Assembly (NCBI GenBank): GCA_041497895.1
Contig: JBGQHJ010000004.1
Coordinates: 11,888 to 75,887 of the forward strand
Reading direction: 5' to 3'
Origin: Candidatus Methylomirabilia bacterium
GTDB taxonomy: Bacteria; Methylomirabilota; Methylomirabilia; Rokubacteriales; CSP1-6
DNA: 64,000 nucleotides
The position numbers and the translations under genes are program-made. The notes beneath the pieces are model-generated. The model had not been told where the DNA came from. It ran no database searches and was given only the letters and a program-made list of their open reading frames with translations. Shown piece after piece: positions 2,842 through 64,000 of the stretch (its first letter is position 1; each line of letters begins with the position of its first letter).

Positions 2842-3291
2842 TCAGGGCCGGCGGTGCGGCTCCGGGTGCGCCGAGGTCGCCCCGCCGGTCAGCCACACGA
2901 AGCCGCGCAGGATGTCGGTCTCGGTGACGATCCCGATCAGCTTGCCGCCCTCGGTCACCGGCAGCGCGCCGATCTTGTGGTCGAGCATCAGGACCGCGGC
3001 GGCCCGCGCGTCGCGGTCGGGCCCGACCGTGATCACGGTCTTGGTCATGACCTCGCCCACCGTGAGCTTGGTCAGGAGGTGGTTGACCTCCCACACCGAG
3101 AGGCTCGTGGCCTGCGAGGGCAGGTTGAGCCGGATATCGCGGTCGGTCACGATCCCCACCAGGCGGCCGTCGGAGCCGACGACCAGGAGATGCCGGATCT
3201 GCTTCTCCACCATCGTGTGGCGTGCCTCGAGCACCCCGGTCTCCACCTTGACCGTGATCGGGTTCCTGGTCATGAGCTCGTCGACTCGCAT
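2842..3291 (-). CDS. CBS-pair domain protein
   Basis: MRVDELMTRNPITV, IRHLLVV, GIVTDRD, IGALPV, GIVTETD; SD GAGGAGG. Confidence 0.9.
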   Translation of the reverse strand: MRVDELMTRNPITVKVETGVLEARHTMVEKQIRHLLVVGSDGRLVGIVTDRDIRLNLPSQATSLSVWEVNHLLTKLTVGEVMTKTVITVGPDRDARAAAVLMLDHKIGALPVTEGGKLIGIVTETDILRGFVWLTGGATSAHPEPHRRP

Positions 3292-3317
3292 GGGGTTCCC
3301 TCCTCTCTCGGCCTCGG

Positions 3318-3887
3318 TCATACCGGCATGCCCCGGCGCCCGGGGCGCTCGGCCTCCCGCTTCTGGTCCATCGCCTCCGCGCGAATGTGCGCCCGGCACG
3401 GCTCGCAGATCAGCTCGTCGCTCGGCTTGCCGCACACCAGGCACGGCCGTGGCGGTGTGACCGCGGGGGCCGCCGCGGGGGCGGCCGCGCCGACCGCCTC
3501 GAGCGACCCGGCGGGCACGGTGAGGACCGGACAGGGCGCCAGCCGCACCACCGTCTCGGCGACGCTGCCCAGGATCGCGTGGCTAAAACCCGTGCGCCCG
3601 TGCGTGCCGAGCACGATGAGGCCGATGCCCTTCTCGCGCGCGTAGTCGACGATCGTTCGCCCGGCCAGCCCGGTCCGCAGCGCGGTCTCCACCCGGAGCC
3701 CCTCGGCGAGACCCTGGCTCGCCCGCGCGAGCTGCTCGCGGAAGGTCGATGGATCGGTGACGGGAGGCACCACGTACAGCACGTGCAGGCGAGCCCGCGC
3801 CTCGAGGGCCATGCCACGCGCGATCCGGCCCGCCGCCTCGGAGGCGGGGGAGAAGTCGGTCGGGAAGAGAATCTCGGTCGGTCGCAT
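3318..3887 (-). CDS. Universal stress protein with C-terminal CxxC-x8-CxxC extension
   Basis: ILFPTDFS, LIVLGTHGRTG, LGSVAETVVRLAPCPVLTV, then CLVC...CEPC. Confidence 0.9.
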   Translation of the reverse strand: MRPTEILFPTDFSPASEAAGRIARGMALEARARLHVLYVVPPVTDPSTFREQLARASQGLAEGLRVETALRTGLAGRTIVDYAREKGIGLIVLGTHGRTGFSHAILGSVAETVVRLAPCPVLTVPAGSLEAVGAAAPAAAPAVTPPRPCLVCGKPSDELICEPCRAHIRAEAMDQKREAERPGRRGMPV

Positions 3888-3901
3888 GTCGTCCTCCTCG
3901 C

Positions 3902-4369
3902 TCACTTGACCACCAGCACCTCGACGGGCGAGCGCTTGAGCGCGGCCTCGGCGACGCTCCCCAGCAGGAAGTGGGTCACCGCGCCCGCCCCCCTCGCCCC
4001 CACCACCAGCACGTCCGCCCGCTCCGCGCGGAGCGCGGCCAGCAACTCCGGCAGCGGGAGCCCGGTCCGCACGACGCCGCGGGCGCGCCAGCCGGCCTTC
4101 GCCAGCAGGGCGGCGGCGCCGTCGACCTGGCGCTGGGCCACCGACCGGCGGATCCGCTCCATGGAGGCCGCCTGCGCCGCGATCTGCGCGCGCATCGGAG
4201 CGGGCACGAGCGGCATCGCCGGCAGCCGCACCGGCTCGACCACGCGCACGCACGTCACCCGGCCGCCCCGCGGGGGACGGAGCCGCGCCACGAAGGCGGC
4301 GGCCCGGCGCGAGTGCGCCGACCCGTCCAGCCCGACCACGATACGGCGGTACCTCCGCGGAGCGGCCAT
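3902..4369 (-). CDS. Universal stress protein
   Basis: IVVGLDGS, DVLVVGARG, LLGSVAEAALKRSPVEVLVVK. Confidence 0.9.
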   Translation of the reverse strand: MAAPRRYRRIVVGLDGSAHSRRAAAFVARLRPPRGGRVTCVRVVEPVRLPAMPLVPAPMRAQIAAQAASMERIRRSVAQRQVDGAAALLAKAGWRARGVVRTGLPLPELLAALRAERADVLVVGARGAGAVTHFLLGSVAEAALKRSPVEVLVVK

Positions 4370-4378
4370 CGAGCTCTC

Positions 4379-6469
4379 CTAGGCGCCGAGGCTGGCCCGC
4401 GCGTCGACCACGATCGCGCCGTCCGGGCTCGCCAGCAGAGGGTTGATCTCGATCTCTCGCAGCTCGGGGAGATCCACCATCAGCTGCGAGAACCGGCTGA
4501 TGATGCCGGCGAGCGCGAGGCGATCCACCGGCCGCTCGCCGCGGATGCCGCGGAGCAGCGGCGCGATACGGAGCTCGTCGAGGAGCGTCGCCGCCTCGTC
4601 GGGAGAGACCGGGGCCAGGCACACCGCGGTGTCGCCCATGACCTCGACGTAGATGCCGCCGAGCCCGACCATCAGGACCGGGCCCCACTGCGGATCGCGC
4701 ACGCCGCCCAGCAACAGCTCCTTGCCGGTCGGGGCCATCGCCTCGACGAGCAGCCCGCGGATCGTCGCCTGCGGCCGCTCCACCGCGACCCGCGCCAGCA
4801 TGGCCGCCGCCGCCTCGCGCACCGCGCGCGCGTCGCGCAGGCCGAGGGCCACGCCGCCCACCTCGGTCTTGTGGGTGATGTCGGGCGAGACGATCTTCAG
4901 GGCCACCGGGAAGCCGAGACGCTCCGCGGCGGCCGCCGCGTCGTCCGCACTCTTGACCACGCGGCCCTCGACGCCGGGAATACCGTAGGCGGTGAGCAGC
5001 GGCTGCAGCTCGGGCGTGCCGAGCTGCCGCGCCCCCGGGCCGCCCTGCTCACCGAGCCAGGCGCGGGCCGCGGCCGGGTCGACCGACGGGACGAACGGGC
5101 TCGGGTCCCTGAGCCGGCGCTCGCTGAGCTTCGCCATGCCGGCCAGCGTCTTGACGGCCGGCTCGGGGAAGGCGTAGCACGGGATGCCGGCCTCCTCGAG
5201 GGTGCGGATCCCGGGGGCCACGCGCGCGCCTCCCACGAAGGCCGCGACCACCGGGATCGACCAGCCGAGCGTCGCGCCCGCGATGGTGCGCGCCACGCTG
5301 GCCGCGTCGGTCGCGGCCTGCGGCGTCAGGAGCACGAGCATCGCGTCGGCGCTCTCGCTGCCCAGGGTGTGCAGCGCGTGGCCGTACCGGCGCGCGTCGG
5401 CGTCGCCCACCAGGTCCACCGGGTTGCCGAGCCCGGCCGTCGCGGGCAGCCCCTCGGCAAGTCGCCGGCGCAGCGGCTCGGCGGGCGGCTCCATGGTGAA
5501 GGCGGCGGCCCGCGCCGCGTCCGTGGCGACGATGCCGAGACCGCCCCCGTTGGTCACCACCACCAGACGGCGGCCGCGCGGCATCGGCTGGCTCGCGAGC
5601 CCGCGCGCGACGTCGAACAGCTCCTCGACGGTGTCGACGCGCAGCGCGCCCGCCTGCCGGACCGCCGCGTCGAAGGCCCGGTCGGATCCGGCAAGCGCGC
5701 CGGTGTGCGAGGCGACCGCGCGCGCGCCCTCGGGGGAGCGCCCCGCCTTCAGCACCACCACCGGCTTGATGAGGGCGGCGCGCCGGAGCGCGTCGAGGAA
5801 CCGGCGGCCGTCGGCCACGCCCTCGATGTAGCACGCCACCACGCGGGTCTCCGCGTCGGTGGCCACCGCATCGAGCAGGTCGCTCTCGTTGACGTCGGCC
5901 TGGTTGCCGAGCGAGGCGAAGAGGGAGAAGCCGACCCGGCGGTCGCGCGCCCAGTCGAGGATCGCCACCGCGAGCGCGCCGGAATGGGAGAGGAAGGCGA
6001 TGCCGCCGGGCTCGGGCATGCCGGGGGCGAACGTCACGTTGAGCCGCCTGGTCGGCCGGATCCAGCCGAGGCAGTTCGGTCCCAGCACGCGGATCGGCTG
6101 GTCCCGCAGCCACTCGCGCAGCTGGGCCTCCCGCCGCGCGCCCTCCCCGCCGATCTCCCGGAAGCCGGCCGAGATCACCACCGCGCCGCCCACTCCCTTG
6201 GCCACGCACTGCACGAGCGCGGGCAGCACGTCGACCGCGGGCAGCGCGATCACGGCCAGGTCCACCGGGCCCTCGGCGTCCTGGATCCGCGGCACCGCGG
6301 CCAGGCCCTGCACCGTGCTCGCGCGCGAGTTGACCGGGATGATGCGGCCGCGGAAGCCGGCCGAGCGCAGGTTGGCGACGACGCTGCCGCCGACCTTGAA
6401 CGGATCGCGCGAGGCCCCGATCACCGCCACGCTGCCCGGGTCGAGGAACGGAACGAGCGAGCCGCTCAC
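4379..6469 (-). CDS. Acyl-CoA synthetase (NDP-forming)/acetate-CoA ligase family, fused alpha-beta
   Basis: SVAVIGAS, GPNCLG, SLGNQAD, ASHTGALAGS (phospho-His site), C-terminal ATP-grasp (FPVALKIVSPDITHKTEVGGV, EINPL); no GNAT domain. Confidence 0.9.
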   Translation of the reverse strand: MSGSLVPFLDPGSVAVIGASRDPFKVGGSVVANLRSAGFRGRIIPVNSRASTVQGLAAVPRIQDAEGPVDLAVIALPAVDVLPALVQCVAKGVGGAVVISAGFREIGGEGARREAQLREWLRDQPIRVLGPNCLGWIRPTRRLNVTFAPGMPEPGGIAFLSHSGALAVAILDWARDRRVGFSLFASLGNQADVNESDLLDAVATDAETRVVACYIEGVADGRRFLDALRRAALIKPVVVLKAGRSPEGARAVASHTGALAGSDRAFDAAVRQAGALRVDTVEELFDVARGLASQPMPRGRRLVVVTNGGGLGIVATDAARAAAFTMEPPAEPLRRRLAEGLPATAGLGNPVDLVGDADARRYGHALHTLGSESADAMLVLLTPQAATDAASVARTIAGATLGWSIPVVAAFVGGARVAPGIRTLEEAGIPCYAFPEPAVKTLAGMAKLSERRLRDPSPFVPSVDPAAARAWLGEQGGPGARQLGTPELQPLLTAYGIPGVEGRVVKSADDAAAAAERLGFPVALKIVSPDITHKTEVGGVALGLRDARAVREAAAAMLARVAVERPQATIRGLLVEAMAPTGKELLLGGVRDPQWGPVLMVGLGGIYVEVMGDTAVCLAPVSPDEAATLLDELRIAPLLRGIRGERPVDRLALAGIISRFSQLMVDLPELREIEINPLLASPDGAIVVDARASLGA

Positions 6470-6888
6470 GCGTGGGGCCCCTCGGCGATCGCCAGCAGCG
6501 CCTCGAGGGCGTCCGCGGCCGTGAAGACGCCCACCACCTGCTCCCCGTCCCAGACCGGGAGCGCGCCGATCCGGCGCTCGAGCATGAGCCGCGCCGCCAC
6601 CGTCATCGGCACCCCGCGCCCCACGCTGACCGGGCCCTCGCTCATGATGGAGCGCACCGGCGCGGCGAGCGCGGGCGACCCCGGCTCGTGGCCGACGAGC
6701 CGCCGCAGGTCACGGTTGGAGAGGATGCCGGTGAGCACCGGGCCGTCCATCACGAGCAGGTGCCGCACGGCGGCGCGATCCATCAGGGCGACGGCGACGT
6801 GGACCGGGGTGTCCTCGGCCACCGCCACCGGCGGCTTGCTCATCCAGTCGCCCACCGTCCCGCCGCGCGCCCCGCCGTCCGGCGTCAT
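6466..6888 (-). CDS. CBS-pair domain protein
   Basis: VGDWMSKPPV, VRHLLV, GILSNRD, IGALPV; stop overlaps the next GTG. Confidence 0.85.
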   Translation of the reverse strand: MTPDGGARGGTVGDWMSKPPVAVAEDTPVHVAVALMDRAAVRHLLVMDGPVLTGILSNRDLRRLVGHEPGSPALAAPVRSIMSEGPVSVGRGVPMTVAARLMLERRIGALPVWDGEQVVGVFTAADALEALLAIAEGPHA

Positions 6889-6893
6889 GGCGC

Positions 6894-7334
6894 TCAGGCG
6901 GGCTCGCGCACCGTGAGCACGGGGCACGGCGCGAGCCGGATCACCCGATCGGCCACGCTGCCGAGGAGCGCGCGGTCGATCCCGCCGCGCCCGTGGGTGC
7001 CGATGACGATCAGGTCGGCCCGCTCGTCCACCGCGAGCGTCACGATCTCCTGGTAGGCCACGCCGCTGCGGAGCGCGGCGCGCGCCGAGAGGCCCTCGGC
7101 CCGCGCCTTGGCCGCCCACTCCTCGAGCGCGGCGTCGGCGAAGCTCCGGGCCGCCTCGAAGACCTCGCGCACCTTGGGCATGATGAACGGGCCCTCGCGG
7201 AACAGCGGAGCCTCGGTCAGCACGTGGGTCAGCACCAGCTCCGCGCCCGACATGCCGGCGAGCCGCTGCGCGAGACGCCACGCGTCCTCCGAGCACGACG
7301 AGAAGTCGGTCGGGACGATGATCCGGTAGAACAT
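6894..7334 (-). CDS. Universal stress protein
   Basis: IIVPTDFS, DLIVIGTHGRGG, LGSVADRVIRLAPCPVLTV. Confidence 0.92.
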   Translation of the reverse strand: MFYRIIVPTDFSSCSEDAWRLAQRLAGMSGAELVLTHVLTEAPLFREGPFIMPKVREVFEAARSFADAALEEWAAKARAEGLSARAALRSGVAYQEIVTLAVDERADLIVIGTHGRGGIDRALLGSVADRVIRLAPCPVLTVREPA

Positions 7335-7338
7335 GGTG

Positions 7339-7770
7339 CTAGGCCTCCCCGATCGGGATCATGGTGCCCCGGGCCGCGGGCGTCTTGGGCAGCGTCACGG
7401 TCAGGAGCCCGTTCTTGACCGTCGCGGTCACCCGCGCCGCGTCCACCGCCACCGGCAGACGCAGGGTGCGGACGAAGACCCCGCAGACGCGCTCGGCGTG
7501 ATGATAGCGCGCCCCGGGCTCCCGGCGCTTCTCCCCCTTGATCGTGAGCAGGCCGTCGTGGAGCGCGATCTCGACGTCCTGCCGCTCCAGTCCCGGCACC
7601 TCGAGAGTCGCGACCAGGCTGTCGCCGGTCTCGGCGACATCCAGGCTGGGTACCCAGTCCCCCAGCGCCGGCAGCTCCGTGCGCTTGACCCGCGCGATGC
7701 GATCGAGCAGCCGGTCCATCTCCCGCTGCAGGCTTTCGATTCCGGCCCACGGCATCAGCCCGCGCATCAT
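7339..7770 (-). CDS. Hsp20/alpha-crystallin small heat-shock protein
   Basis: PSLDVAET, LLTIKGEK, ATVKNGLLTVTLPK. Confidence 0.92.
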   Translation of the reverse strand: MMRGLMPWAGIESLQREMDRLLDRIARVKRTELPALGDWVPSLDVAETGDSLVATLEVPGLERQDVEIALHDGLLTIKGEKRREPGARYHHAERVCGVFVRTLRLPVAVDAARVTATVKNGLLTVTLPKTPAARGTMIPIGEA

Positions 7771-7818
7771 GGTGGTCTTCCTCCCTCCTCGAGCGTCACG
7801 TGCCCGCCCTCGAAGATT

Positions 7819-7834
7819 TGCAACGCGAGTGCCA
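7819..7834 (-). promoter_or_regulatory. sigma54 -24/-12 promoter P1 (hsp20-usp-cbs-acyl-CoA synthetase operon)
   Basis: Minus strand TGGCAC-TCGCG-TTGCA; IHF-like ATTCGGGCAGTTA at 7851-7863. Confidence 0.9.
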
Positions 7835-7885
7835 CGAGAGACCCCCGTCGATTCGGGCAGTTACGGCCGGCGGCGGCGCGACCGC

Positions 7886-7922
7886 CGAGGCGGCCCCGCC
7901 TCGCTGTGGCGACGGCGCCCCA
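7886..7922. promoter_or_regulatory. Tandem 18-bp palindromes (putative bEBP enhancer) U1
   Basis: CGAGG-cggccccg-CCTCG c TGTGG-cgacggcg-CCCCA. Confidence 0.75.
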
Positions 7923-7929
7923 GGACCTC

Positions 7930-7958
7930 TTGAAGCCACCCGGCCCTTGGCCCACAAT
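7930..7958 (+). promoter_or_regulatory. Possible sigma70-type promoter for the sensor kinase
   Basis: TTGAAG-N17-CACAAT, ending 33 bp before the GTG start. Confidence 0.4.
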
Positions 7959-7991
7959 GCAGGCGTTCATGATCCCGCGCGCCGAGGCCAC

Positions 7992-10157
<2,166 letters not shown>

Positions 10158-11685: not shown

Positions 11686-12543
11686 ATGGATGCCCTGCTG
11701 CCGCCTCAGATGGCGGAGCGCGCCGAGACGATCGGGGTGGCGAAGACGTCGATGGACGCCTCGCGGCTCTTCGTGCTCGCGGTCCTGGCCGGCGCGTTCA
11801 TCGCGCTGGGGGCCGTCTTCGCCACCACCGCGCTGGCCGGGTCGTCCGCCCTGCCCTGGGGGCCCGCCCGCGTGCTCGGCGGGGTCGCCTTCAGCCTCGG
11901 GCTCATCCTGGTGGTGGTGGGTGGCGCCGAGCTCTTCACCGGTAACAACCTGATCGTGATGGCGTGGGCGAGTGGCCGCGTGAGCACCCCCGCCCTCCTC
12001 CAAAACTGGGCCATCGTGTTCGCCGGCAACTTCGCGGGAGCCGCCGCGACCGCGCTCGCGGTCTGCCTGGCCGGCACCGCCCGCGGCGGCGACGGCGCGT
12101 TCGGCGAGGCCGCCTTCGCCATCGCGCAGGCCAAGCTCGCGCTCCACCCGTTCCAGGCGGTGGTGCTCGGCATGCTGGGCAACTCGCTCGTGTGTCTCGC
12201 GGTATGGCTCGGCTACAGCGCGCGGACCACCGCCGACCGGATCCTCGCGATCGTGCCGCCGATCAGCGCGTTCGTGGCCGCCGGCTTCGAGCACTCGGTC
12301 GCGAACATGTACTTCGTGCCCTATGCGATCTTCGTCACCGCGCTCGATCCGGAGTGGGTCCGCGCGCACGCGCCGGCCGCGGGCGCCGCCGCGCCGACGT
12401 GGGGCGCGTTCCTGGTGCGCAACCTGGCGCCGGTCACGCTCGGCAACATCATCGGCGGCGCGGTGCTGGTGGGCGCGGTCTACTGGTTCGTCTACCTGCG
12501 GGGCCGGCCGGGCTCGAAGCGCGCGAGCGGGCGCGAGTCCTAG
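11686..12543 (+). CDS. Formate/nitrite transporter (FNT) family channel
   Basis: [42 protein letters not shown]. Confidence 0.92.
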
Positions 12544-13637: not shown

Positions 13638-13670
13638 GCCCGGCCGATCAGCTGCGCTGCGCTTTCCAGA

Positions 13671-13976
13671 TCACCGCAGCGATGCGAGGTAGGAGGCGAG
13701 GGCCTGCACTTCGGCCTCGGTGAGCTGGAGCTTCGGCATGTGCTGGCGCGGCTTCTGCTGCGAGGGGTCGCGCAGCCAGCGGCCGAGGTAGGCCTCGTCG
13801 TGCTTCGCGCCGATCCGGGAGAGGTCCGTCGCGATCGGCGTGCCCGTCGCGCCGACCGTGTGACAGCCGTAGCAGCCCTGGTCCCTGAAGAGGCCCTTCC
13901 CGCGGGCCACCAGCGCGCCGTCCTCCGCCTCCACGCCCGCGGCCAGCAACAGCATCAGCAGCAGTCCCTTGATCAC
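13671..13976 (-). CDS. Monoheme cytochrome c (secreted)
   Basis: Signal peptide, CYGCH, distal Met in HMPK; GTG overlaps the upstream TGA; SD AAGGAGG. Confidence 0.88.
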   Translation of the reverse strand: MIKGLLLMLLLAAGVEAEDGALVARGKGLFRDQGCYGCHTVGATGTPIATDLSRIGAKHDEAYLGRWLRDPSQQKPRQHMPKLQLTEAEVQALASYLASLR

Positions 13977-14374: not shown

Positions 14375-14390
14375 TGCAACGTGAGTGCCA
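14375..14390 (-). promoter_or_regulatory. sigma54 promoter P2 (traR/dksA-cytochrome c-pfkA)
   Basis: Minus strand TGGCAC-TCACG-TTGCA. Confidence 0.9.
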
Positions 14391-14406
14391 TGCGGTAAGG
14401 CTGAAG

Positions 14407-14419
14407 AATCAGGACGTTG
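14407..14419 (+). promoter_or_regulatory. IHF-like site between P2 and U2
   Basis: AATCAGGACGTTG matches WATCAR-N4-TTR. Confidence 0.65.
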
Positions 14420-14441
14420 GCAGGGCCGACGCACACCTGCG

Positions 14442-15337: not shown

Positions 15338-15351
15338 TGGGATCCCTCCGG

Positions 15352-15885: not shown

Positions 15886-15926
15886 CGCCACTCGGGTCGG
15901 CGGGTGCGAGAAAACGGGACGTTGGG

Positions 15927-54476: not shown

Positions 54477-54479
54477 GCC

Positions 54480-54929
54480 TCACCAGAGGAGAAGATCGCT
54501 CTCGACGTCGACGCCGTGCACCTGCCTGAAGGCGGCCAGCACGTCCCGCTCGGTCAGGATGCCCACGAGCCGCGCATCCGCCACCACCGGCAGGCTGCCG
54601 ATCCGCCGCTGGAACATCGTGAGCGCCGCCTGGGCCACGGGGGTATCCGCGGTCGTCGTCACGACCGACCAGGTCATCACGTCCCGCACCCGCGGCGCCT
54701 TGGCCCGATGGGCCGGGCAGCCGGTCTGCTCGCCCAGCATCGGCACGAAGGCCGCGTGTCGCAGGTCGCGATCCGTCAGCATCCCCAGCACGTGCTCGGC
54801 CTCGTCGACGACCGGGAGATGTCGGATCCCCTGGGTCCGCATCAGCTCGGCCGCCTGCTTCACGGGCGTGTCGAGATTGACCACCGTCGGGTGCTTCGTC
54901 ATCACGTCGCTGACTTTCATGGCGATCAC
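54480..54929 (-). CDS. CBS-pair domain protein
   Basis: MKVSDVMTKHP, IRHLPVV, GMLTDRD, IGSLPV; start is 54929 (GTG) or 54920. Confidence 0.9.
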   Translation of the reverse strand: MIAMKVSDVMTKHPTVVNLDTPVKQAAELMRTQGIRHLPVVDEAEHVLGMLTDRDLRHAAFVPMLGEQTGCPAHRAKAPRVRDVMTWSVVTTTADTPVAQAALTMFQRRIGSLPVVADARLVGILTERDVLAAFRQVHGVDVESDLLLW

Positions 54930-55228
54930 GCGTGCGCTTTCTCGGGCACGGGCTCGGGGTTCAGGATGGCGCGCAGCTCCTTCCCCATCCTGAAGAACGG
55001 GGCGTTCCGGGCCGGAACCTCGACGATCGCACCGGTCTTCGGGTTCAGCCCCGTGCGGGGACGGCGCTGGCGAATCCCGAGCGTGCCCAGCCCGCGCAGC
55101 TCCACGCGCTCACCCTTGATCAGCGCCTGGACGATCCGTTCGAACACCGCGGTCACGACGGTCTCGCTCTCCTCGGGCGTGAGGCCGGCGACGCGGGCCA
55201 CTTCCTCGATCAGGTCGCTCTTGTTCAT
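54926..55228 (-). CDS. Integration host factor beta-like / HU family DNA-binding protein
   Basis: MNKSDLIEEV, GERVELRGLG, NPKTG, GKELR. Confidence 0.9.
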   Translation of the reverse strand: MNKSDLIEEVARVAGLTPEESETVVTAVFERIVQALIKGERVELRGLGTLGIRQRRPRTGLNPKTGAIVEVPARNAPFFRMGKELRAILNPEPVPEKAHA

Positions 55229-55254
55229 GGTCACCCCCCTTCAGGTTGCAGGGT

Positions 55255-55270
55255 TGCAACTGCGCTGCCA
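55255..55270 (-). promoter_or_regulatory. sigma54 promoter P15 (IHF-CBS-cDPGS-like-ldt-mepK)
   Basis: Minus strand TGGCAG-CGCAG-TTGCA; IHF-like TCCCGGATGCTTA at 55298-55310. Confidence 0.85.
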
Positions 55271-55334
55271 TGCTGGGCCCGGCCGAAAGGCCCGCGATCC
55301 CGGATGCTTACACGGCACCGAGCCCGGGCACCGA

Positions 55335-55372
55335 TGGGGCGCTCCCTCCCCAGCTGGGGCGAGCGCTCCCCT
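55335..55372. promoter_or_regulatory. Tandem palindromic enhancer U11
   Basis: TGGGG-cgctccct-CCCCA gc TGGGG-cgagcgct-CCCCT. Confidence 0.85.
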
Positions 55373-55380
55373 TGGACCGG

Positions 55381-56376
55381 TCAGCCGAGCCGGGTCAGCT
55401 CGTCGCGCGGGGACCACTCGAAGCGCACGCGCCTGCCGGCCCGATAGCCGTCGACACCGCGGCCGGCCTTCACCGCACCGATCACGGCGGCGGGGATCTG
55501 CTGGCGACGGAAGGTCGCGAGCAATCGCCCGGCCTTCGGCTCGGGTATGGTCAGTAACAGTGCGCCGGATGCGATCAGGCCGAGCGTACGGAGCCCGAAG
55601 TGGGCGCACAGGCGAGCCGTGTAGGGATGCACGGGCACGCGATCGAGGTCGGCGACCAGGCGCCGGCCCGAGGCGGTGGCCAGCTCGAAGAGCGCCGCGG
55701 CGACTCCGCCTTCGGTCGGGTCGTGCATCGCGGTCGCCCCGGCCCGCGCGGCCAGCCGGGCCTCGTCGACCACCGAGATGCCCGGCCGATGGTGGAAGCG
55801 CGCCGCTCGCCGTTGCGCGGTGCGGCCCAGCGCGGCTCGGGCCTCACCCGCGAATCGCCGCGCGATGATCGAGGTCCCCTCGATGCCGGCGACCTTGGTC
55901 ATGATGACGACGTCTCCGACCCGGGCGCCGGCCGCGGTCACCAGGCCGTCCCGCCGAACCAGTCCCTGCATGTCCCCGGCGACGATGGGCTGCCTCACCG
56001 CAGGGGAGATCTCGGTATGTCCGCCGGTGACGGCGATGCCGAGCCCACGGGCGCTCCGATCGACGTCCCGGAAGATCCGCTCGACCGTCGCGGGGGTCGT
56101 GCGGGGCGGCACGATGATCGTGGACTGGAACCAGGCCGGGCGGGCTCCCATCACGGCCACGTCGTTGGCGTTGACGTGAACCGCGTACCATCCGACTTCC
56201 TCGGCGGTGAACGTGACCGGGTCGCTCTTCAGGATCAGGTACTGCGAGCCGAGATCGATGACCGCGGCATCGAGCCCGAAGGCCGGACCCAGGACCACCC
56301 GGCGGTCCGGGGCGCCGCGAAAGCGGAGCAGCCGTCGCAGCACGGCGGGCGGCAGCTTACCGGGGAGGAGGGCCAT
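55381..56376 (-). CDS. AIR synthase/HypE-like (PurM superfamily) protein
   Basis: GKLPP, GLDAAVI, SDPVTF, VNANDVA, GGHTE, MHDPTEGG. Confidence 0.85.
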   Translation of the reverse strand: MALLPGKLPPAVLRRLLRFRGAPDRRVVLGPAFGLDAAVIDLGSQYLILKSDPVTFTAEEVGWYAVHVNANDVAVMGARPAWFQSTIIVPPRTTPATVERIFRDVDRSARGLGIAVTGGHTEISPAVRQPIVAGDMQGLVRRDGLVTAAGARVGDVVIMTKVAGIEGTSIIARRFAGEARAALGRTAQRRAARFHHRPGISVVDEARLAARAGATAMHDPTEGGVAAALFELATASGRRLVADLDRVPVHPYTARLCAHFGLRTLGLIASGALLLTIPEPKAGRLLATFRRQQIPAAVIGAVKAGRGVDGYRAGRRVRFEWSPRDELTRLG

Positions 56377-56518
56377 GGGACCGTCCGGGCAGGCGTCCGG
56401 CCTAGCGCGCCGGTGCAGGCGGCGGTGCTGGCGATGGGCCCGCGGGCGGAGCAGGAATGCCCGGCGGCAGCGAGGGCAGCGGCGGCGGGGAGATGGGTGA
56501 GAGGATGTCCCGCACTGG

Positions 56519-56809
56519 CTAGGGCCCGCCTGGCTCAGCCGCTCGGAGCGGCCCCCGTCGCACGCTCGATCCGTACGAACTCCGCCCTGGCGCGACGCCG
56601 AGGGTGCGGCGCTCGAGCTGGGTGATCCCGTCCTTGACGCGCCACGGGCCCATGCCCTCGACGATCATCGTGCCAGCGCCCTGATCCACCGCCACGACCG
56701 TGCCCGAGTACCTGAATTCCCTTGGGTCATCGCCCTGGCCCGGAATCGCCGAGCCGGTGATCGTCACCGCCGCTGCGACGACGGCCCAGATGCTTCTCCG
56801 TATGCTCAC
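56519..56809 (-). pseudogene. Secreted beta-rich hypothetical protein, possibly frameshifted/truncated
   Basis: Signal-like N-terminus, YSGTVVAVD. Codon style degrades after about 56590, while another frame reads EFVRIERATGAAPSG then TGA. Confidence 0.45.
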
Positions 56810-56812
56810 GCT

Positions 56813-57106
56813 TCAGCTCGGGAGCACGAGCTGGAACCGCTCCCAGGGCATCGCGGTCCAGGTCTCGGTCTGGGCGTGGCCGTACGAGCGGATGATCATC
56901 ACCACCTTGGCGGCCACGGTCTCGTCGGGAGCCTCGAAGATGTCCAGGTAGTCATAGGGCCCGAGGGTGGCGTAGTTGGCCACCCACTTCACCTGGGGGC
57001 AATCCCGCCGCACGTGATCGGCGACCACTCGTTCGAGCCGCTTCAGCTCGCCCGGCGTCTTCACGGCCTCGGGCGTCAGTCGGGTCAGCACCACATAGGT
57101 CGACAT
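56813..57106 (-). CDS. GYD domain protein
   Basis: MSTYVVLTRLT, YATLGPYDYLDIFEAPD, TETWTA. Confidence 0.85.
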   Translation of the reverse strand: MSTYVVLTRLTPEAVKTPGELKRLERVVADHVRRDCPQVKWVANYATLGPYDYLDIFEAPDETVAAKVVMIIRSYGHAQTETWTAMPWERFQLVLPS

Positions 57107-57165
57107 GGTGTTCTCCTCTCCCGGAAAGAACGTCGCACGTGGTCGAGCGTCTGGCTTCCTGGCAA

Positions 57166-57181
57166 CGCATGCGCTGTGCCA
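57166..57181 (-). promoter_or_regulatory. sigma54 promoter P16 (GYD operon)
   Basis: Minus strand TGGCAC-AGCGC-ATGCG. Confidence 0.72.
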
Positions 57182-57268
57182 GCCCACCGTCCTGTCGCCT
57201 CACGGTGAAGACCGCCGCGGCTGCGGTCACTTGCCTACCGATTGCGGCGAGGGCCGCCGGTGTGGGCA

Positions 57269-57306
57269 TGAGGCACCCGCGCCTCAGATGGGGCCGCGTC
57301 AGCTCA
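57269..57306. promoter_or_regulatory. Tandem palindromic enhancer U12
   Basis: TGAGG-cacccgcg-CCTCA ga TGGGG-ccgcgtca-GCTCA. Confidence 0.82.
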
Positions 57307-58425
57307 CACCCCCAGCTCGGCGCGCACGCGGACGTAGTGCAGGACCTGCTCCCGCGCGATCATGCCGAGGAGCTCGCCGGCTTCCACCACCGGCATCTGC
57401 GCCACGTCGGCGTCGTCCATCTTCTCCAGCGTGGTGAGCAGATCCGCCTTCGGCCCGACCGCGGCCAGCTTCTCCGCCGGTGTCATGACATGGCCCGCGG
57501 TGACGGTGGCCCACTGCTCCTGTGGCACGGCCTTGATCTCGTGCAGCGTGAGCAGGCCGACCATCCGCCCGGCATCGGTCACGACGAAGCAGCGCCGGCC
57601 CGCCCCCAGCACCTCCTCGCGAACGATGCGCTCCAGGCTCGTCCCCCGCTCCACGCGCCGGCAGTCCGACGTCATGACCTGGGCCACCGTCACGTCGCGC
57701 AGCAGCTCGCGTAGGTTGGTCTCCTTGTAGCTGGCCGCGGCGGCGTTCTGGAGGAACCACCCGATGAAGGCGATCCACATCCCCCCGATCACGTTGCCGT
57801 TCAGCGCGGTCAAGATTCCCCACCCGATGAAGCCGAAGGCCACCATCTGGCCGACGGCAGACGCGGCCCGGCTGGCACGCCGGAGGCTTCCAGTGGAGCG
57901 CCAGACGAGCGCTCGGAACAGTCGGCCGCCGTCCAGCGGGAAGCCCGGCACCAGGTTGAAAGCCGCCACCATGAAGTTGATGCGGGCCAGCCAGATCGCG
58001 GGCGCCGCCAGGGCCGGGACGTCACGAACCACCAGCCACGTGCCGCCGAACAGGCCGGCCAGCGCCAGGCTCGTGATGGGCCCGGCGATGGCAACCCGGA
58101 GCTCGACCGCCGGAGCCCCGGGTTCCCGGGCGATCTGGGCGATGCCGCCGAAGACGAAGAGCGTGATGCTCCGGATCGGGATCTGGTTCCGGAGCGCGAT
58201 CCAGCAGTGCCCGAGCTCGTGGACCAGGATGGAGGCGAAGAAGATCAGCGCGGTGATCGCTCCCACCACCCAGTAGGTCCCCGCGGCCCAGCCGGGGTAT
58301 TCGTGCGGGAAGTACCCGGCCGCCAGGGACCAGGCCACGAGTCCGAAGACCAGAAGCCAGCTCAAATGGATCCGGATCGGAATACCCCAGACCTCGAAGA
58401 TCTCGAGCCGACGCGCCAATGCCAC
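57304..58425 (-). CDS. Site-2 protease (M50) with C-terminal CBS pair (Rip3-like)
   Basis: HELGH, IAGP, FNLVPGFPLDGG, two CBS domains. Confidence 0.93.
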   Translation of the reverse strand: MALARRLEIFEVWGIPIRIHLSWLLVFGLVAWSLAAGYFPHEYPGWAAGTYWVVGAITALIFFASILVHELGHCWIALRNQIPIRSITLFVFGGIAQIAREPGAPAVELRVAIAGPITSLALAGLFGGTWLVVRDVPALAAPAIWLARINFMVAAFNLVPGFPLDGGRLFRALVWRSTGSLRRASRAASAVGQMVAFGFIGWGILTALNGNVIGGMWIAFIGWFLQNAAAASYKETNLRELLRDVTVAQVMTSDCRRVERGTSLERIVREEVLGAGRRCFVVTDAGRMVGLLTLHEIKAVPQEQWATVTAGHVMTPAEKLAAVGPKADLLTTLEKMDDADVAQMPVVEAGELLGMIAREQVLHYVRVRAELGV

Positions 58426-58434
58426 CCCGCCTCG

Positions 58435-58854
58435 TCAGTCTTCCTCGAGCACGCCCTGGAGCGCCCTCAGCACGTCCACGTAGCTGATGATCCCGACCAC
58501 CTCCCGCGTCCCCTCGTCGACCACCGGGAGGGCCCCGATCTTGTGGTCGAGCAGGAGCCCGATCACCTCGCTGATCTCGGACTCGGGCTCGACCGAGATC
58601 GGATCCGGGCTCATGACCCGGGAAATCGGAGTCGCCAGCTCCTGCCGGAGCGCGTCGGCACCCCCGACCTTCAGGAGGCGGGCGAGGTCGACCCGGGCGA
58701 GATCGCGATCGCTGAGCATGCCGACAAGGACACCATCCAGGGTGACCGGGACGTGCCGGACGTCGGCCTCTCGCATCAGGTCCCACACTTCTGCGACGCT
58801 CGCCTCGGGTGTCACGGTCAACGGGTTCGCGGTCATCACATCACGAGCGATCAT
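58435..58854 (-). CDS. CBS-pair domain protein
   Basis: SD AAGGAG; ARDVMTANP, VRHVPV, GMLSDRD, IGALPVV. Confidence 0.9.
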   Translation of the reverse strand: MIARDVMTANPLTVTPEASVAEVWDLMREADVRHVPVTLDGVLVGMLSDRDLARVDLARLLKVGGADALRQELATPISRVMSPDPISVEPESEISEVIGLLLDHKIGALPVVDEGTREVVGIISYVDVLRALQGVLEED

Positions 58855-58887
58855 GAGGATCTCCTTTGGGTGTCCATCTGAGGCGAG

Positions 58888-58903
58888 AGCAAGCGCGATG
58901 CCA
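58888..58903 (-). promoter_or_regulatory. sigma54 promoter P17 (CBS-site-2 protease)
   Basis: Minus strand TGGCAT-CGCGC-TTGCT; IHF-like ATTTCGGCACTTA at 58920-58932. Confidence 0.87.
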
Positions 58904-58965
58904 GTAGCGGTTGCACTGGATTTCGGCACTTATCTTCGGGCAGAGTAGCGGCGGGGCGCGGACAG

Positions 58966-59003
58966 TGGGGCGCCGGCTCCCCGGATGGGTCACGACGTCC
59001 CGG
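58966..59003. promoter_or_regulatory. Tandem palindromic enhancer U13
   Basis: TGGGG-cgccggct-CCCCG ga TGGGT-cacgacgt-CCCGG. Confidence 0.75.
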
Positions 59004-61331: not shown

Positions 61332-62786
61332 TCACTCGTGCGAGGCCGTCGCGGCCGCCCGCGCCGGCTCGGCCGCCTCGATCTGCGCTCGCAGGCCGCT
61401 CTGGAGGGACACGAGACGCTCGCTGCAGCTCACCGGATAGGTCGCGCGCCGATGCAGCTGCCGGAGATCCTCCGGCAGGGAGGCGACCTGGGCCGCGCAG
61501 TACTCCCGCACCGCGGTGAGTGCCGGGTGGGGCGCCAGAGGGCGGCCGCGCTCCATCACGGAGCGCAGCAGGATCTCGACGGTGCCGGGAGGCGGCGCCT
61601 CCTCACGCAGGGCGATCACGTCCCCCGCGAACTCTTCGCCGCTGAGAATGCGCCGGTACACCTGCTTCTGGGCGGCCCAGGTCACCTTGCCCTCGCTGCC
61701 TTTCAGTACCGGCCGGCCGTCGTATTCGACGAGCTTGTAGACCATGTCCAGATACGGCAGGTCGGCGGAGACGTCCATGCGCGTGCCCACCCCGAACGCA
61801 TCGATGGGCGCGCCGGCGGCGAGACATTCGCCGATGCTCTCTTCGTCGAGGCCCCCGCTCGCGACGATCTTTACGTACTGCAGCCCGGCGGCGTCGAGGA
61901 TCCGTCGGACCTCGAGGCTCAGGCCGACGAGGTTCCCGCTGTCCAGCCGGACGCCGGTGAGACGCTGGCCCCGGGCTTCCATCTCTTTCGCCACCACCAC
62001 CGCCTTCCGCGCCCCGCCGAGCGTGTCGTAGGTATCGAGGAGCAGGGTACTCTGCCCGGGAAATGCGTGGGCGAAGGCGCGAAAGGCGTCGATCTCGCGG
62101 GCGAACGCCGAGACGTAGGAGTGCGCCATGGTACCGGTGGGCGGGATGCCGTAGGAGAGACCGGCCAGCACGTTGCTGCTCATCGCGGCGCCCGCGATGT
62201 AGGCGCAGCGCGCCGCCTTCATGCCGGCATCGACCCCGTGGGTCCGCCGCAGGCCGAACTCGATCACCGGACGCCCGCGGGCCGCGAGGACGCACCGCGC
62301 CGCCTTGCTCGCGAGCACCGTCTGGAAATGGACCAGGTTGAGGACCGCGGTCTCCACCAGCTGGGCCTCGATGATCGGTGCGGTCACCTCGATCAAGGGC
62401 TCGTTCGGGAAGACCACGGTGCCTTCGGGCACCGCCCGGACCAGGCCGGTGAAGCGCAGCCGGCGAAGGAATTCCAGGAAGCCGGAATCGAAGTGGCCGA
62501 GCGCGTCGAGATAGGACAGGCCGTCGCGGGAGAAGCAAAAGTCCCGCAGGAAGTTCAGAACGTCCTCGAGGCCGGCCGCGACCAGAAAGCCGCGCCCCGG
62601 CGGAAGCGTCCGGGCGAACAAGCTGAAGGTCGCGGGACCATGCATCCCCTCGCGCAAGTACGAGGCGGCCATGGTGATCTGGTAAAGATCGGTGAAGAGC
62701 GCCGCGTCGCGGGTGAGGAGCGGCCCGGATGCGAACGTCCCCCGCCCTGTCCTCGGACGACGGCTACTGCGAGTTTCATCTGCCAT
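61332..62786 (-). CDS. pncB: Nicotinate phosphoribosyltransferase
   Basis: LFTDLYQITM, EFGLRR, GTMAHS, LLDTYD, VRLDSG, ASGGLDE, FGVGT, VYKLV. Confidence 0.94.
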   Translation of the reverse strand: MADETRSSRRPRTGRGTFASGPLLTRDAALFTDLYQITMAASYLREGMHGPATFSLFARTLPPGRGFLVAAGLEDVLNFLRDFCFSRDGLSYLDALGHFDSGFLEFLRRLRFTGLVRAVPEGTVVFPNEPLIEVTAPIIEAQLVETAVLNLVHFQTVLASKAARCVLAARGRPVIEFGLRRTHGVDAGMKAARCAYIAGAAMSSNVLAGLSYGIPPTGTMAHSYVSAFAREIDAFRAFAHAFPGQSTLLLDTYDTLGGARKAVVVAKEMEARGQRLTGVRLDSGNLVGLSLEVRRILDAAGLQYVKIVASGGLDEESIGECLAAGAPIDAFGVGTRMDVSADLPYLDMVYKLVEYDGRPVLKGSEGKVTWAAQKQVYRRILSGEEFAGDVIALREEAPPPGTVEILLRSVMERGRPLAPHPALTAVREYCAAQVASLPEDLRQLHRRATYPVSCSERLVSLQSGLRAQIEAAEPARAAATASHE

Positions 62787-62807
62787 GGTGGTCTCCTTCC
62801 TGCTTCG

Positions 62808-63437
62808 TCAGCGGCGATGGACCCGGGTGGCCTTCCGCCTCCGCCCGATGAGAAACGTCTGACCATCGGTGGCCAGCTCCCCGAAGGGCGGCCGGCCCCC
62901 GAGGGCCAGCGCACGGAGGGTCGGGCGACCCAGATGTGCGAACACGAGCCGCTTCACCCCCCGCCGACGGGCCGCCCGCGCGACGGCCATGACGTCCATG
63001 TGTCCGCCGACTCCTCCCGCGAACCGGATCGGACGGTCCCACGCCGCCCCTTCCGCGAACATGAGGTCGGCGCCCCCCGCCCAGGTCGGGAACCGGTAGA
63101 ACTCCGGCGCCCAGACGACGGTGCGGCCCCGAGCCCGGATGTGGTAGCCCCAGGTCGGATGATTGGTATGAACCACCCGCCGGCGCTCGACGCGCACGCC
63201 GTGGTGCCGGAACGTCCCGGCGTACGGGTGCAAACCCTTTGTGCCCGCCGCTCGCCGGATCGCGCCGATCAGCTCGGCTCGCTCGTCGGTCACCAGCCAC
63301 GCGTCGAGCCGGCCACGGGGCACGGCACCGGGGCCCCCGTCGAGCATGATCCGGACGGCCCCGCAGGCGACGAGAAGCCCCGCCGGCCGGAAGCGAGGAG
63401 AGTTCTGGGCCCCGACCCCGAGCGTCATGAGCCGCAC
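62808..63437 (-). CDS. Degenerate metallo-beta-lactamase-fold-like hypothetical protein
   Basis: TLGVGA, MLDGG, VVHT, GGHM, LVFAHLG, ATDGQ resemble the RNase Z/PhnP layout, but HxHxDH is absent. Confidence 0.55.
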   Translation of the reverse strand: MRLMTLGVGAQNSPRFRPAGLLVACGAVRIMLDGGPGAVPRGRLDAWLVTDERAELIGAIRRAAGTKGLHPYAGTFRHHGVRVERRRVVHTNHPTWGYHIRARGRTVVWAPEFYRFPTWAGGADLMFAEGAAWDRPIRFAGGVGGHMDVMAVARAARRRGVKRLVFAHLGRPTLRALALGGRPPFGELATDGQTFLIGRRRKATRVHRR

Positions 63438-63441
63438 CGCA

Positions 63442-64000
63442 TCAGGTCCAGGCCAGCACCTCGGGCTCGCGGCGGGTGGTCGGCGCCGTCTCACCGCGAG
63501 GCCAGCCCACGATGAGCGGCGCGACGGCCGAGAGCTCGCCCGGTATCCCGAGCTCGGCCTTGACCTCCGGCGTGTTCAGCGCCGGAACCGCCGACCCGAT
63601 CACGCACGAGCCGAGTCCCATCGCGCAGGCCGCGAGCATGAGGTTCTCCGCGGCGAGCCAGCAATCGGCCACGACGAATGGCCCCATCGGCTTGGCGCAG
63701 ATCACGATGAGCGTGCCGGCGTCGTAGAAGATGTTGAACTCCGGGCTCGCGAAGACATCGAGCAGGTGGCCGCCCCGGTCGAGGTGGGCGCGATGTGCTT
63801 CCTCGCCGAAGAGCGGCTTCGCCCGATCCGAGAGACGCTCGAGCGCGCTCGGGTCCTGCAGGACGACGAAGGCCCACGGCTCCTGGTGCACCGCGGTCGG
63901 CGCCCGCACGGCGGCCCGGAGCAGCGCGAGGACCGTGGCGCGGTCGACCGGCTCGGGACCGTACGAGCGCACCGAGCGTCTCGCATGGATCGCATCCAGC
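63442..64000 (-). CDS. Nitroreductase family protein (start lies beyond the window)
   Basis: DAIHARRSVRSY, APTAVHQEPWAFVV, AAENLMLAACAMGLGSC. Confidence 0.92.
   Translation of the reverse strand, partial: LDAIHARRSVRSYGPEPVDRATVLALLRAAVRAPTAVHQEPWAFVVLQDPSALERLSDRAKPLFGEEAHRAHLDRGGHLLDVFASPEFNIFYDAGTLIVICAKPMGPFVVADCWLAAENLMLAACAMGLGSCVIGSAVPALNTPEVKAELGIPGELSAVAPLIVGWPRGETAPTTRREPEVLAWT

Follow-up and report, generated by a model that had tools for sequence, protein, structure and literature searches.

The 64,000-nucleotide stretch analysed here, called the window throughout, comes from a Candidatus Methylomirabilia bacterium (contig JBGQHJ010000004.1, positions 11,888 to 75,887; G000:C4:11888-75887). 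It makes up most of an accessory island, some 95-100 kb long, in the chromosome of a member of the Rokubacteriales (Methylomirabilota), and the island is organised as one sigma-54 regulon whose promoters share a tandem-dyad enhancer. The regulon, the enhancer and their conservation are solid, and an oxygen or redox signal and a role in dormancy can reasonably be inferred. We favour, at a probability of about 60%, the reading that a haem-type sensor kinase and an NtrC-type activator switch this sigma-54 regulon of a stress-survival island, and that the output is a growth-arrest programme.

The source assembly is a 5.11-Mb metagenome-assembled genome (MAG) in 280 contigs with a completeness of 86.8%, and the end of the window coincides with the end of its contig. 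Genes were called from codon-position G+C and checked with Pfam and NCBIfam. The window has a G+C content of 72.0% and makes up 1.25% of the genome. Domain matches for stress proteins were enriched in it, with 5 of the 14 genomic matches to universal stress proteins (USPs), 2 of 3 to HSP20 and 20 of 51 to CBS.

Sigma-54 promoters and the tandem-dyad enhancer

The sigma-54 pattern TGGCAC-N5-TTGC, with at most one mismatch allowed, occurred at 14 sites in the window against 2.59 expected; none of 100 shuffles reached this count, the largest giving 8. A weighted scan returned 17 sites at a score of 13 or more. Sixteen of these sat 15-60 nt before a start codon, with GG at -24 and GC at -12 at the proper distance from the gene and mostly with a purine-rich ribosome site (distances and ribosome sites were read by eye). 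The preliminary description of this DNA had placed a DosR-like gene set mostly behind a sigma-54 module, and the promoters bear this out. The seventeenth site (44824-44839, +) was discarded; it falls on the start of an open reading frame (ORF) for a CarS-like protein, at the 5' end, and the nearby enhancer is on its downstream side.

The enhancer had been described as tandem copies of TGGGG-N8-CCCCA. In this literal form the dyad occurred once, and at least one copy was present in 10 of 100 shuffles, which is chance level, so the literal form was abandoned for a degenerate dyad and a position weight matrix (PWM). The degenerate dyad TGRGG-N8-CCYCA was enriched, with six copies against 0.38 expected and 0 of 100 shuffles reaching six, and the tandem layout proved real. 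By a crude score, 13 of the 16 promoters had two dyads 2 nt apart upstream, with starts 65-125 nt from the -24 element, and some promoters had a third dyad 20 nt further on. The unit is an 18-bp dyad with the consensus YGRGGC-N6-GCCYCR, and dyad starts are 19-21 bp apart. This agrees with what is expected in the regulon of a bacterial enhancer-binding protein (bEBP), namely a common dyad enhancer in at least two copies some 70-150 nt upstream, and the arrangement was kept in congeners. According to excerpts of a published study (PMC11841059), an NtrC-type enhancer commonly has two or three dyads on the same face of the helix.

The PWM was built from 18 dyads of nine window promoters picked by coordinates, and position 4 was G and mirror position 15 was C in 36 of 36 symmetrised units. 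A tandem upstream activating sequence (UAS) was called where two dyads with a gap of 1-3 nt reached a PWM sum of at least 17. The 5.1-Mb genome contained 29 such UASs, of which 12 fell in the window, four on contig C25 and two on each of C8, C10 and C133, the other seven being singletons. For 26 of the 29, a sigma-54-like site pointing away from the UAS was present within 170 nt; among the 17 UASs outside the window's contig, which took no part in PWM training, 15 had such a site within that distance. Within the window, the 12 UASs served 14 of the 16 promoters, three of them being common to divergent promoter pairs.

It might be argued that the motifs are chance products of a 72% G+C genome and that nothing is unusual about the gene clustering. 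Genomes of this composition often contain G+C-rich palindromes, and the single literal dyad was indeed at chance level. However, no shuffle reached either the promoter count or the degenerate dyad count, and the reversed genome yielded 5 tandem sites, one of them near a promoter-like site, against 29. Random positions had a sigma-54-like site within 170 nt in 181 of 5000 cases (3.6%), far below the proportion seen at the tandem sites, and the layout was kept in three congeners. The shuffle, reversed-genome and random-position controls refute this explanation, the probability of which is next to nil.

Candidate activator, sensor kinase and conservation

None of the genomic matches to the sigma-54 activator domain (PF00158), which amount to about 18 genes, fell inside the window. 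The likely activator of the island is an NtrC-type response regulator encoded on contig C25. This bEBP combines REC, Sigma54_activat (PF00158, E = 4e-72) and HTH_8 domains, shows GAFTGA in its translation and has AtoC as its best NCBIfam model. Its gene is directly upstream of the USP gene(s) carrying a UAS and a sigma-54 promoter. The identification of this activator and of the window-encoded kinase as the candidate pair is well supported by position and co-occurrence. With an NtrC-type candidate and a common tandem dyad in one sigma-54 regulon, the earlier idea of sigma-54 in place of a NarL-type regulator was upheld.

Four UAS-promoter modules were found on C25, before an AMP-forming acetate-CoA ligase, before a YbaK-like protein and GroEL, before an eRF1-like protein (baeRF family 10) and a Lon-like protease, and before two USP genes. 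This contig also encodes a P2A-like ATPase, RtcA and another CBS gene. The RtcA gene (RNA 3'-phosphate cyclase; L022:2-862, +, equal to C25:20002-20862) lies about 2 kb from the operon for the Lon-like and eRF1-like proteins, apart from rtcB and the archease gene. On C8, further modules stand before the genes of a CBS-citrate synthase pair and of a second PAS kinase, and on C1 before a USP gene. Another USP and CBS cluster (C91:3900-11300) had no tandem UAS at the threshold used.

A UAS and a sigma-54 promoter also precede two PAS-LuxR (GerE) one-component regulators on C10 and C133 (L025:9442-10425, -; L027:9425-10108, +). The helix-turn-helix (HTH) domains of these regulators match the NarL, VraR and DevR structures in the PDB, so a NarL-type HTH does occur in the regulon, at a second level. 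No haem-PAS protein was matched by their PAS domains, and the second kinase on C8 gave no tblastn match to the second PAS domain of the window kinase.

These regulators bring in a different explanation, in which the dyad is bound by another factor, for example a PAS-LuxR regulator with its DosR-type HTH or an HU/IHF-like protein, and several different bEBPs fire the promoters. The number of bEBPs in the genome and the presence of two PAS-GerE regulators in the regulon suit this explanation, as does the geometry of the dyad. Excerpts of a report on OsdR (PMC5069765) give its consensus as a palindrome of 16 nt in which 8 nt separate GGG from CCC, said to conform to the M. tuberculosis one. When the dyad was aligned with this consensus on the dyad axis, GG fell on the same two positions, with C adjoining. 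The resemblance to the DosR box that had been pointed out earlier therefore stands for the GG-N8-CC geometry about the dyad but not for the DNA-binding fold, which is Fis-type in one case and LuxR-type in the other. Because the candidate activator has a Fis-type HTH and DosR/OsdR a LuxR-type one, we read the likeness to the DevR/OsdR box as convergence or coincidence. To our knowledge, LuxR-type factors alone cannot open sigma-54 promoters. Moreover, 16 of 26 orthologue loci have the UAS next to the gene of the bEBP; bEBP, kinase and island co-occur; and enhancers of bEBPs normally comprise two to three dyads on the same face of the helix at such a distance (65-125 nt) ahead of -24 (PMC11841059, excerpts). 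We consider binding by another factor improbable, and retain the C25 bEBP as the predicted ligand of the dyads.

The distribution of the activator gene agrees with such an assignment. Orthologues were taken at 62% identity or more, the next matches (paralogues) reaching at most 57%, and were present in 25 of 40 relatives; matches at E ≤1e-140 occurred in 125 of 251 genomes of the phylum, a count that takes in the unpublished genomes G233 and G074. In the 16 orthologue loci with an adjoining UAS, this was mostly just past the stop codon, with the promoter aimed at the next gene, and none of four paralogue loci had one. A search of related loci carrying the bEBP gave one orthologue, in Candidatus Rokubacteria GWA2_70_23 (L063), at 72% identity; the other 79 loci were rejected, being at paralogue level with 39-49% identity.

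The synteny and motif conservation in related genomes that had been proposed as a check were both found. Three congeners had 9, 13 and 12 tandem UASs, in each case on a single ~100-kb contig; promoters accompanied 8, 13 and 11 of these. The island of one congener (G019) is contiguous, with the kinase gene at its start and the USP and activator genes at its far end, merging the content of the window with that of C25; it additionally holds genes for a PGA_cap protein, Lon and a BON-domain protein. Kinase orthologues were 6-90 kb from the activator gene on the same contig in G007, G012 and G019, and in G002 they are neighbours with the same orientation (C57:1370-2812 and 2922-4313). Among 20 congeners, ten had both kinase and activator, two the kinase only (G005, with a partial match, and G018, which is 78% complete), none the activator only, and eight neither. 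A 447-aa protein encoded in the window (53133-54476, -), which has no Pfam or NCBIfam family except a faint P-loop match and shares an operon with HU-like and CBS genes, was used as a further marker. It had matches of 84-93% identity in 8 of the 20 congeners; marker and activator were both present in seven, the marker only in one, the activator only in three, and neither in nine. Since kinase, activator and marker co-occur in only part of the congeners, the island is accessory within the genus.

The candidate sensor is a histidine kinase (7800-10157, +) with CHASE3, PAS, haem-type PAS (~9030-9470), HisKA and HATPase domains, and its best NCBIfam model is AtoS. At E ≤1e-6, 14 of 14 PDB matches of the second PAS domain were haem-PAS structures (seven FixL, six DosP/EcDOS and one FG214). 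The domain aligned to the haem PAS of FixL, DosP and FG214 over about 105-130 residues, with E values from 2e-15 to 4e-10. In the printed alignments, a His of the query was aligned with the FixL His, which we take to be the proximal haem ligand, and the His pair of the domain was kept in two orthologues (G012, G007). For FG214, excerpts of a preprint (bioRxiv 10.64898/2026.03.15.711900) name two His, a Met and another His as candidates for haem ligation; the second PAS carries the FG214 H-x-x-H...M pattern, with 3 of the 4 candidate ligand positions kept. Because the second PAS matches only haem-PAS sensors and has the ligand His, a low-oxygen or redox input to the kinase is plausible, and to that extent the hypoxia part of the preliminary description is strengthened.

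The same regulon and switch might nonetheless respond to something other than oxygen or redox state, such as a cue at CHASE3 or a ligand of the first PAS, and form a general programme for starvation, desiccation, heat or stationary phase. Both domains are present in the kinase, and small heat-shock proteins (sHSPs), GroEL, Lon, isoaspartate methyltransferase and USPs would suit any growth arrest. The UASs of the window, moreover, are without the respiratory and denitrification genes typical of hypoxia regulons. Against this stand the exclusive haem-sensor matches of the second PAS with its conserved ligand His, and the set of ADP-forming acetate-CoA ligase, phosphoenolpyruvate (PEP) synthase, malic enzyme and phosphofructokinase (PFK), which suits energy conservation without respiration. 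The NmpR regulon, which has the same architecture, is hypoxia-induced according to excerpts of PMC11841059. We think a signal of another kind unlikely, while taking it seriously.

In the mechanism that we propose, the CHASE3-PAS-(haem-type PAS) kinase would sense low oxygen or a redox change and phosphorylate the NtrC-type regulator (REC, AAA+ with GAFTGA, Fis-type HTH) encoded at the island's far end. The activator would then assemble on the tandem dyads and simultaneously open the sigma-54 promoters of 26 or more units, which would thereby be induced together. Each unit would have a -24/-12 promoter with two (sometimes three) 18-bp dyads about 65-125 nt upstream. The predicted output is a programme of growth arrest and maintenance. 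Proteostasis would be served by two sHSPs, GroEL, the Lon-like protease, the isoaspartate methyltransferase and an M50 protease, and nucleotide-binding USP and CBS proteins would be made as well. RNA repair and translation shut-down would involve archease-RtcB, the eRF1-like protein (Rv2629 superfamily) and a DksA-like protein, beside an HU/IHF-like one. Carbon and energy flow would be redirected by ADP- and AMP-forming acetate-CoA ligases, PEP synthase, malic enzyme, PfkA and citrate synthase, and ion pumps, efflux and envelope remodelling would complete the output. The two PAS-LuxR regulators and the second kinase may act as a second tier.

Several observations weigh against this proposal. 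The rpoN domains PF04552 and PF04963 were not found in the assembly, which is 86.8% complete; since PF04552 was found in 5 of 5 congeners, this is probably an assembly gap. The promoter pair at 27602 and 27762 is without a UAS at the PWM threshold, and may represent leaderless transcripts, a different activator or a false positive. The nicotinate phosphoribosyltransferase (NAPRTase) and nitroreductase genes have no promoter within the window because their operon begins beyond the contig end. The kinase has an extracytoplasmic CHASE3 domain and a first PAS, which are possible carriers of other signals, and haem binding by the second PAS is a prediction from alignments. Related genomes are non-independent samples, and the co-occurrence tables are therefore descriptive. 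A strict pattern, GRGG-N8-CCYCRNNYGRGG, was at control level in two genomes that carry the bEBP (G002, 1 against 4; G012, 5 against 4). This pattern had been tried as a phyletic marker in 41 genomes and was rejected as too insensitive, the PWM finding 13 tandem sites in G012. No UAS adjoined the bEBP homologues of G172 (75% identity) and G093 (60% identity; a 2.75-Mb single-contig genome of 58% G+C), near which few or no strong sigma-54 sites were found; the link between UAS and bEBP is therefore not phylum-wide.

RNA libraries gave weak evidence that island pieces from close relatives are present in soil RNA. Six runs contain part of the stretch. In four soil metatranscriptome runs, which came from three studies, contigs matched parts of 39001-59000 at 92-99% likeness, among them contigs over the methyltransferase and hsp20 genes (39003-40123), a USP gene (44111-44744) and a CBS gene (45486-46295). 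Such contigs indicate presence, not level, strand, condition, gene ranking, transcript ends or joint induction.

Transcription units of the window

Operon A (1455-7770, -) follows control region 1 (7819-7922, -), which comprises a sigma-54 promoter at 7819-7834 and a UAS at 7886-7922 (PWM 24.6, outside the training set). It encodes hsp20 (7339-7770), USP (6894-7334), CBS (6466-6891), ADP-forming acetate/acyl-CoA ligase (4379-6469), two USPs (3902-4369 and 3318-3890), CBS (2842-3444), a Ddn-like deazaflavin oxidoreductase (2337-2804) and pirin (1455-2327). Its genes, identified by Pfam and NCBIfam, share a single strand throughout, with short gaps or none, and the kinase gene is divergent from it. 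The Ddn-like protein (TIGR00026, over cut-off) and the FbiB-C/BluB-like nitroreductase at the other end of the window (63442-64000, -) hint at F420 use in the lineage.

Control region 2 (14375-14479, -; sigma-54 14375-14390, UAS 14442-14479, PWM 27.4) precedes an operon (12540-14320, -) for a DksA/TraR-type zinc finger protein (13973-14320), a cytochrome c (13671-14012) and a PfkA-type phosphofructokinase (12540-13637). Control region 3 (15870-15984, -; sigma-54 15870-15885, UAS 15947-15984, PWM 20.7) precedes genes for a secreted repeat protein (15352-15831), DUF2267 (14948-15337) and CBS (14529-14951) in an operon at 14529-15831 (-). Inside the secreted-protein gene, at 15533-15644, five promoter-scan matches were spaced exactly 24 nt, which points to an 8-residue tandem repeat in the protein. 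Control region 4 (23198-23304, -; sigma-54 23198-23213, UAS 23267-23304, PWM 27.3) precedes the operon at 15995-23169 (-), which encodes a YgaP-like transmembrane protein (22930-23169), an RND adaptor (21737-22996) and pump (18543-21740), DUF302 (18137-18529), archease (17472-17900) and RtcB (15995-17464).

The divergent sigma-54-like pair at 27602-27617 (-) and 27762-27777 (+) had a best crude tandem score of 11, and its start codons are only about 14-15 nt downstream. On one side is the unit at 23325-27587 (-), with a HAD-IIB phosphatase fused to a P-loop domain (25851-27587) and an MgtA-type P-type ATPase (23325-25850). On the other side, 27704-33606 (+), are genes for a Pal-like OmpA lipoprotein, a Glu/Leu/Phe/Val dehydrogenase, DUF3300 and an OPT transporter.

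Control region 5 (40146-40307) has a common UAS (40214-40250, PWM 28.8, outside the training set) between sigma-54 promoters at 40146-40161 (-) and 40292-40307 (+). The operon on the minus strand (33603-40125) encodes hsp20 (39652-40125), protein-isoaspartate methyltransferase (38948-39619), USP (38529-38966), an ABC ATPase with a MacB-type permease (36348-38458), PEP synthase (33941-36355) and a cytochrome c (33603-33944). The plus-strand unit (40313-44195) encodes CBS (40313-40771), an acyl carrier protein (ACP)-acyl-AMP ligase-PlsC fusion (40790-43639) and a DUF308 membrane protein (43440-44195). A USP gene (44263-44739) in the unit at 44263-44952 (-) has a UAS (44915-44952, PWM 19.4) and a weak sigma-54-like site (44836-44851, score 12.0), with no promoter scoring 12.5 or more. 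Nearby, 44770-45513 (+) encodes a bacterial homologue of CDP-archaeol synthase (CarS-like; NF003114, 104 bits, under cut-off), and an archaeal-type S-adenosylmethionine synthetase (PF01941) is encoded elsewhere in the island (L021:18602-19975, -).

The unit at 45526-46417 (-) consists of a UAS (46380-46417, PWM 26.4), a sigma-54 promoter (46303-46318), a CBS gene (45748-46299) and a small ORF (45526-45747). Malic enzyme (46422-47807, -; promoter 47803-47818, -) shares the UAS at 47860-47897 (PWM 26.0) with a small membrane protein (48000-48311, +; promoter 47963-47978, +). Likewise, the CBS genes at 48335-48790 and 48853-49512 (-; promoter 49456-49471, -) share the UAS at 49549-49586 (PWM 25.5) with a second small membrane-protein gene (49603-50004, +; promoter 49652-49667, +). 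The two small membrane-protein genes are paralogous and without family, each having its own sigma-54 promoter and a UAS in common with a divergent operon.

The unit at 50925-55372 (-) has a UAS at 55335-55372 (PWM 29.3) and a promoter at 55255-55270, followed by genes for an HU/IHF-like protein (54926-55234), CBS (54480-54929), the 447-aa protein, and an L,D-transpeptidase with a MepK-like endopeptidase (50925-53100). A GYD-domain protein (56813-57187) lies behind a promoter at 57166-57181 and a UAS at 57269-57306 (PWM 25.5; whole unit 56813-57306, -). The last UAS-bearing unit (57304-59003, -) has a UAS at 58966-59003 (PWM 22.7), a promoter at 58888-58903, a CBS gene (58435-58851) and an M50 protease with a CBS pair (57304-58425). 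At the end of the window, 61332-64000 (-) encodes NAPRTase (61332-62786), a metallo-beta-lactamase (MBL)-fold protein (62808-63494) and the nitroreductase, which is cut by the window and contig end.

Relation to known regulons

A hypoxia and dormancy programme like that of DosR, in a diderm lineage and with other wiring, had been suggested for this DNA. The diderm envelope and the sigma-54/bEBP wiring agree with that suggestion. A Pal lipoprotein model above its cut-off, the RND pump with its MFP adaptor and MlaC fit a diderm lineage. The likeness to DosR, however, is at family level only, and the idea itself is already in print. Every class named in the preliminary description was found by Pfam at family level: five USP genes and two hsp20 genes, nine genes for CBS-pair proteins standing alone, an M50 protease that carries a CBS pair and immediately follows a CBS gene (together 57304-58851), archease directly before RtcB (15995-17900), NAPRTase, P-type ATPase, PFK and a truncated nitroreductase. 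The ADP-forming acetate-CoA ligase, PEP synthase, malic enzyme, isoaspartate methyltransferase and the DksA-like and HU/IHF-like proteins are additional to that list.

Three of the classes are analogues only. The PFK is PfkA-type (PF00365; NF002872 over cut-off), whereas Rv2029c is a pfkB/ribokinase-type enzyme. The window ATPase scored 902 bits on the MgtA-type Mg-ATPase model TIGR01524 (cut-off 610.75), and the P2A-like ATPase of the same regulon is the one encoded on C25. The nitroreductase gave weak NCBIfam matches to FbiB-C/BluB models and none to an Acg model. In PDB searches, Rv2623 was at rank 4-5 for a window USP (E = 6e-13) and Rv2626c at rank 24 for a window CBS protein (E = 5e-8), each among many other entries, and the C25 eRF1-like protein matched the Rv2629-family hibernation-factor model weakly (65 bits, cut-off 320). 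The sequences thus suggest a likeness in protein family and function, that is, in content rather than ancestry.

The families in common with the M. tuberculosis DosR regulon and with OsdKR of S. coelicolor are USP, alpha-crystallin, CBS, M50-CBS, archease-RtcB, eRF1-like, NAPRTase, P-type ATPase and nitroreductase. The module orders CBS to M50-CBS and archease to RtcB match those of Rv2626c-Rv2625c and Rv2630-Rv2631 in M. tuberculosis. In each case, too, the palindromic boxes stand in tandem, their G-runs separated by 8 nt. On the other hand, the island PFK, window ATPase and nitroreductase belong to other subfamilies. The candidate activator is REC-AAA+-Fis HTH, in contrast to the REC-LuxR/GerE (NarL-type) DosR, and the kinase has CHASE3, two PAS, HisKA and HATPase_c domains and no GAF, in contrast to the GAF-haem, HisKA_3-type DosS and DosT. 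The dyads also stand 65-125 nt upstream of -24/-12 sigma-54 promoters, whereas the Dev box fronts sigma-70-type promoters. The predicted haem site likens the kinase to the solved haem-PAS domains of FixL, DosP and FG214, with a His at the FixL ligand position. In contrast to FixL-FixJ, the putative partner is an NtrC-type bEBP rather than a LuxR-type FixJ, and a CHASE3 domain is added.

In Proteobacteria, RtcR and sigma-54 control rtcBA. The island resembles that system in that RtcB is under predicted sigma-54 control, but there is no CARF-type RtcR here, rtcB is the last gene of a longer operon with archease, and rtcA is elsewhere in the island, on C25.

Burkholderia cenocepacia already provides a case of a differently wired DosR-like gene set in a diderm; for this species, excerpts of PMC3721108 describe lxa, a low-oxygen-activated locus of about 50 genes with an Anr/FNR-type TGA-N6-TCA motif. 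Like the island it is clustered, with six USPs, alpha-crystallin, a nitroreductase, a sugar kinase and a cation ATPase, and its authors compare it to DosR; unlike the island, the lxa locus as described in those excerpts has no sigma-54 promoters and no bEBP. The 'dormancy regulon' gene set would thus have been assembled under a third logic, sigma-54 with a bEBP, besides the LuxR-type DosR and the FNR/Anr-type lxa, which helps to separate the essentials of the programme from lineage history. Rokubacteria are widespread in soil and have never been cultured, and the island offers a concrete, testable model of their persistence, with one sensor, one activator, one motif and about 26 promoters. The enhancer motif and the co-occurring marker genes could also be used to score MAGs for this capacity.

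A bolder version of our proposal is put forward tentatively, and we hold it to be rather doubtful as a whole: that one haem-PAS kinase and NtrC-type activator pair is the master switch of an accessory, ~100-kb 'hibernation island' carrying 26 or more sigma-54 promoters, that its operator converged on DevR/OsdR geometry, and that the island splits ecotypes. If true, this would be among the largest single-activator sigma-54 regulons, with an operator of DevR/OsdR GG-N8-CC geometry read by a different DNA-binding fold. Because about half of the species of the genus carry kinase, activator and island and the rest lack them, close relatives would then be split into ecotypes able and unable to sit out anoxic soil episodes.

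Literature searches found nothing joining Rokubacteria with sigma-54, or a sigma-54 enhancer-binding protein with universal stress protein and dormancy; for RpoN with USP, Hsp20, CBS and RtcB they found only work on Bradyrhizobium microoxia. The closest published system, by analogy, appears to be the NmpR 'oxygen utilisation' regulon of Myxococcus xanthus. Excerpts of PMC11841059, on which our comparison draws, describe for NmpRSTU an NtrC-type/sigma-54 regulon that responds to hypoxia and counts CBS, USP and P-type ATPase genes among its targets, so that this type of regulon, too, is already in print. Both systems belong to soil diderms, pass a haem-type kinase input (predicted here) to an NtrC-type response regulator, and have paired dyads upstream of sigma-54 promoters. 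CBS, USP and P-type ATPase genes are targets in both, as are the signalling genes themselves. The bEBP match in a Myxococcales-titled locus (L097) is at paralogue level, with 48% identity. In contrast to the globin-coupled kinase NmpU, which acts via the relay NmpS and NmpT, a single CHASE3-PAS-haemPAS candidate kinase is present here; its Pfam domains include no globin or REC (the genome was not searched for globin-coupled kinases). The site is GCGCA-N5-TGCGC in Myxococcus and YGRGGC-N6-GCCYCR in the island. Seven bound promoters, centred on a cbb3 oxidase, HemN and hemerythrin, are reported for NmpR, as against at least 26 units here, on one island of about 100 kb and directed at proteostasis, RNA repair and carbon rewiring. 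Relative to the NmpR regulon as it appears in those excerpts, the island would differ in its sensor, in its site, in the much larger size and the physical clustering of its regulon, and in the emphasis of its output.

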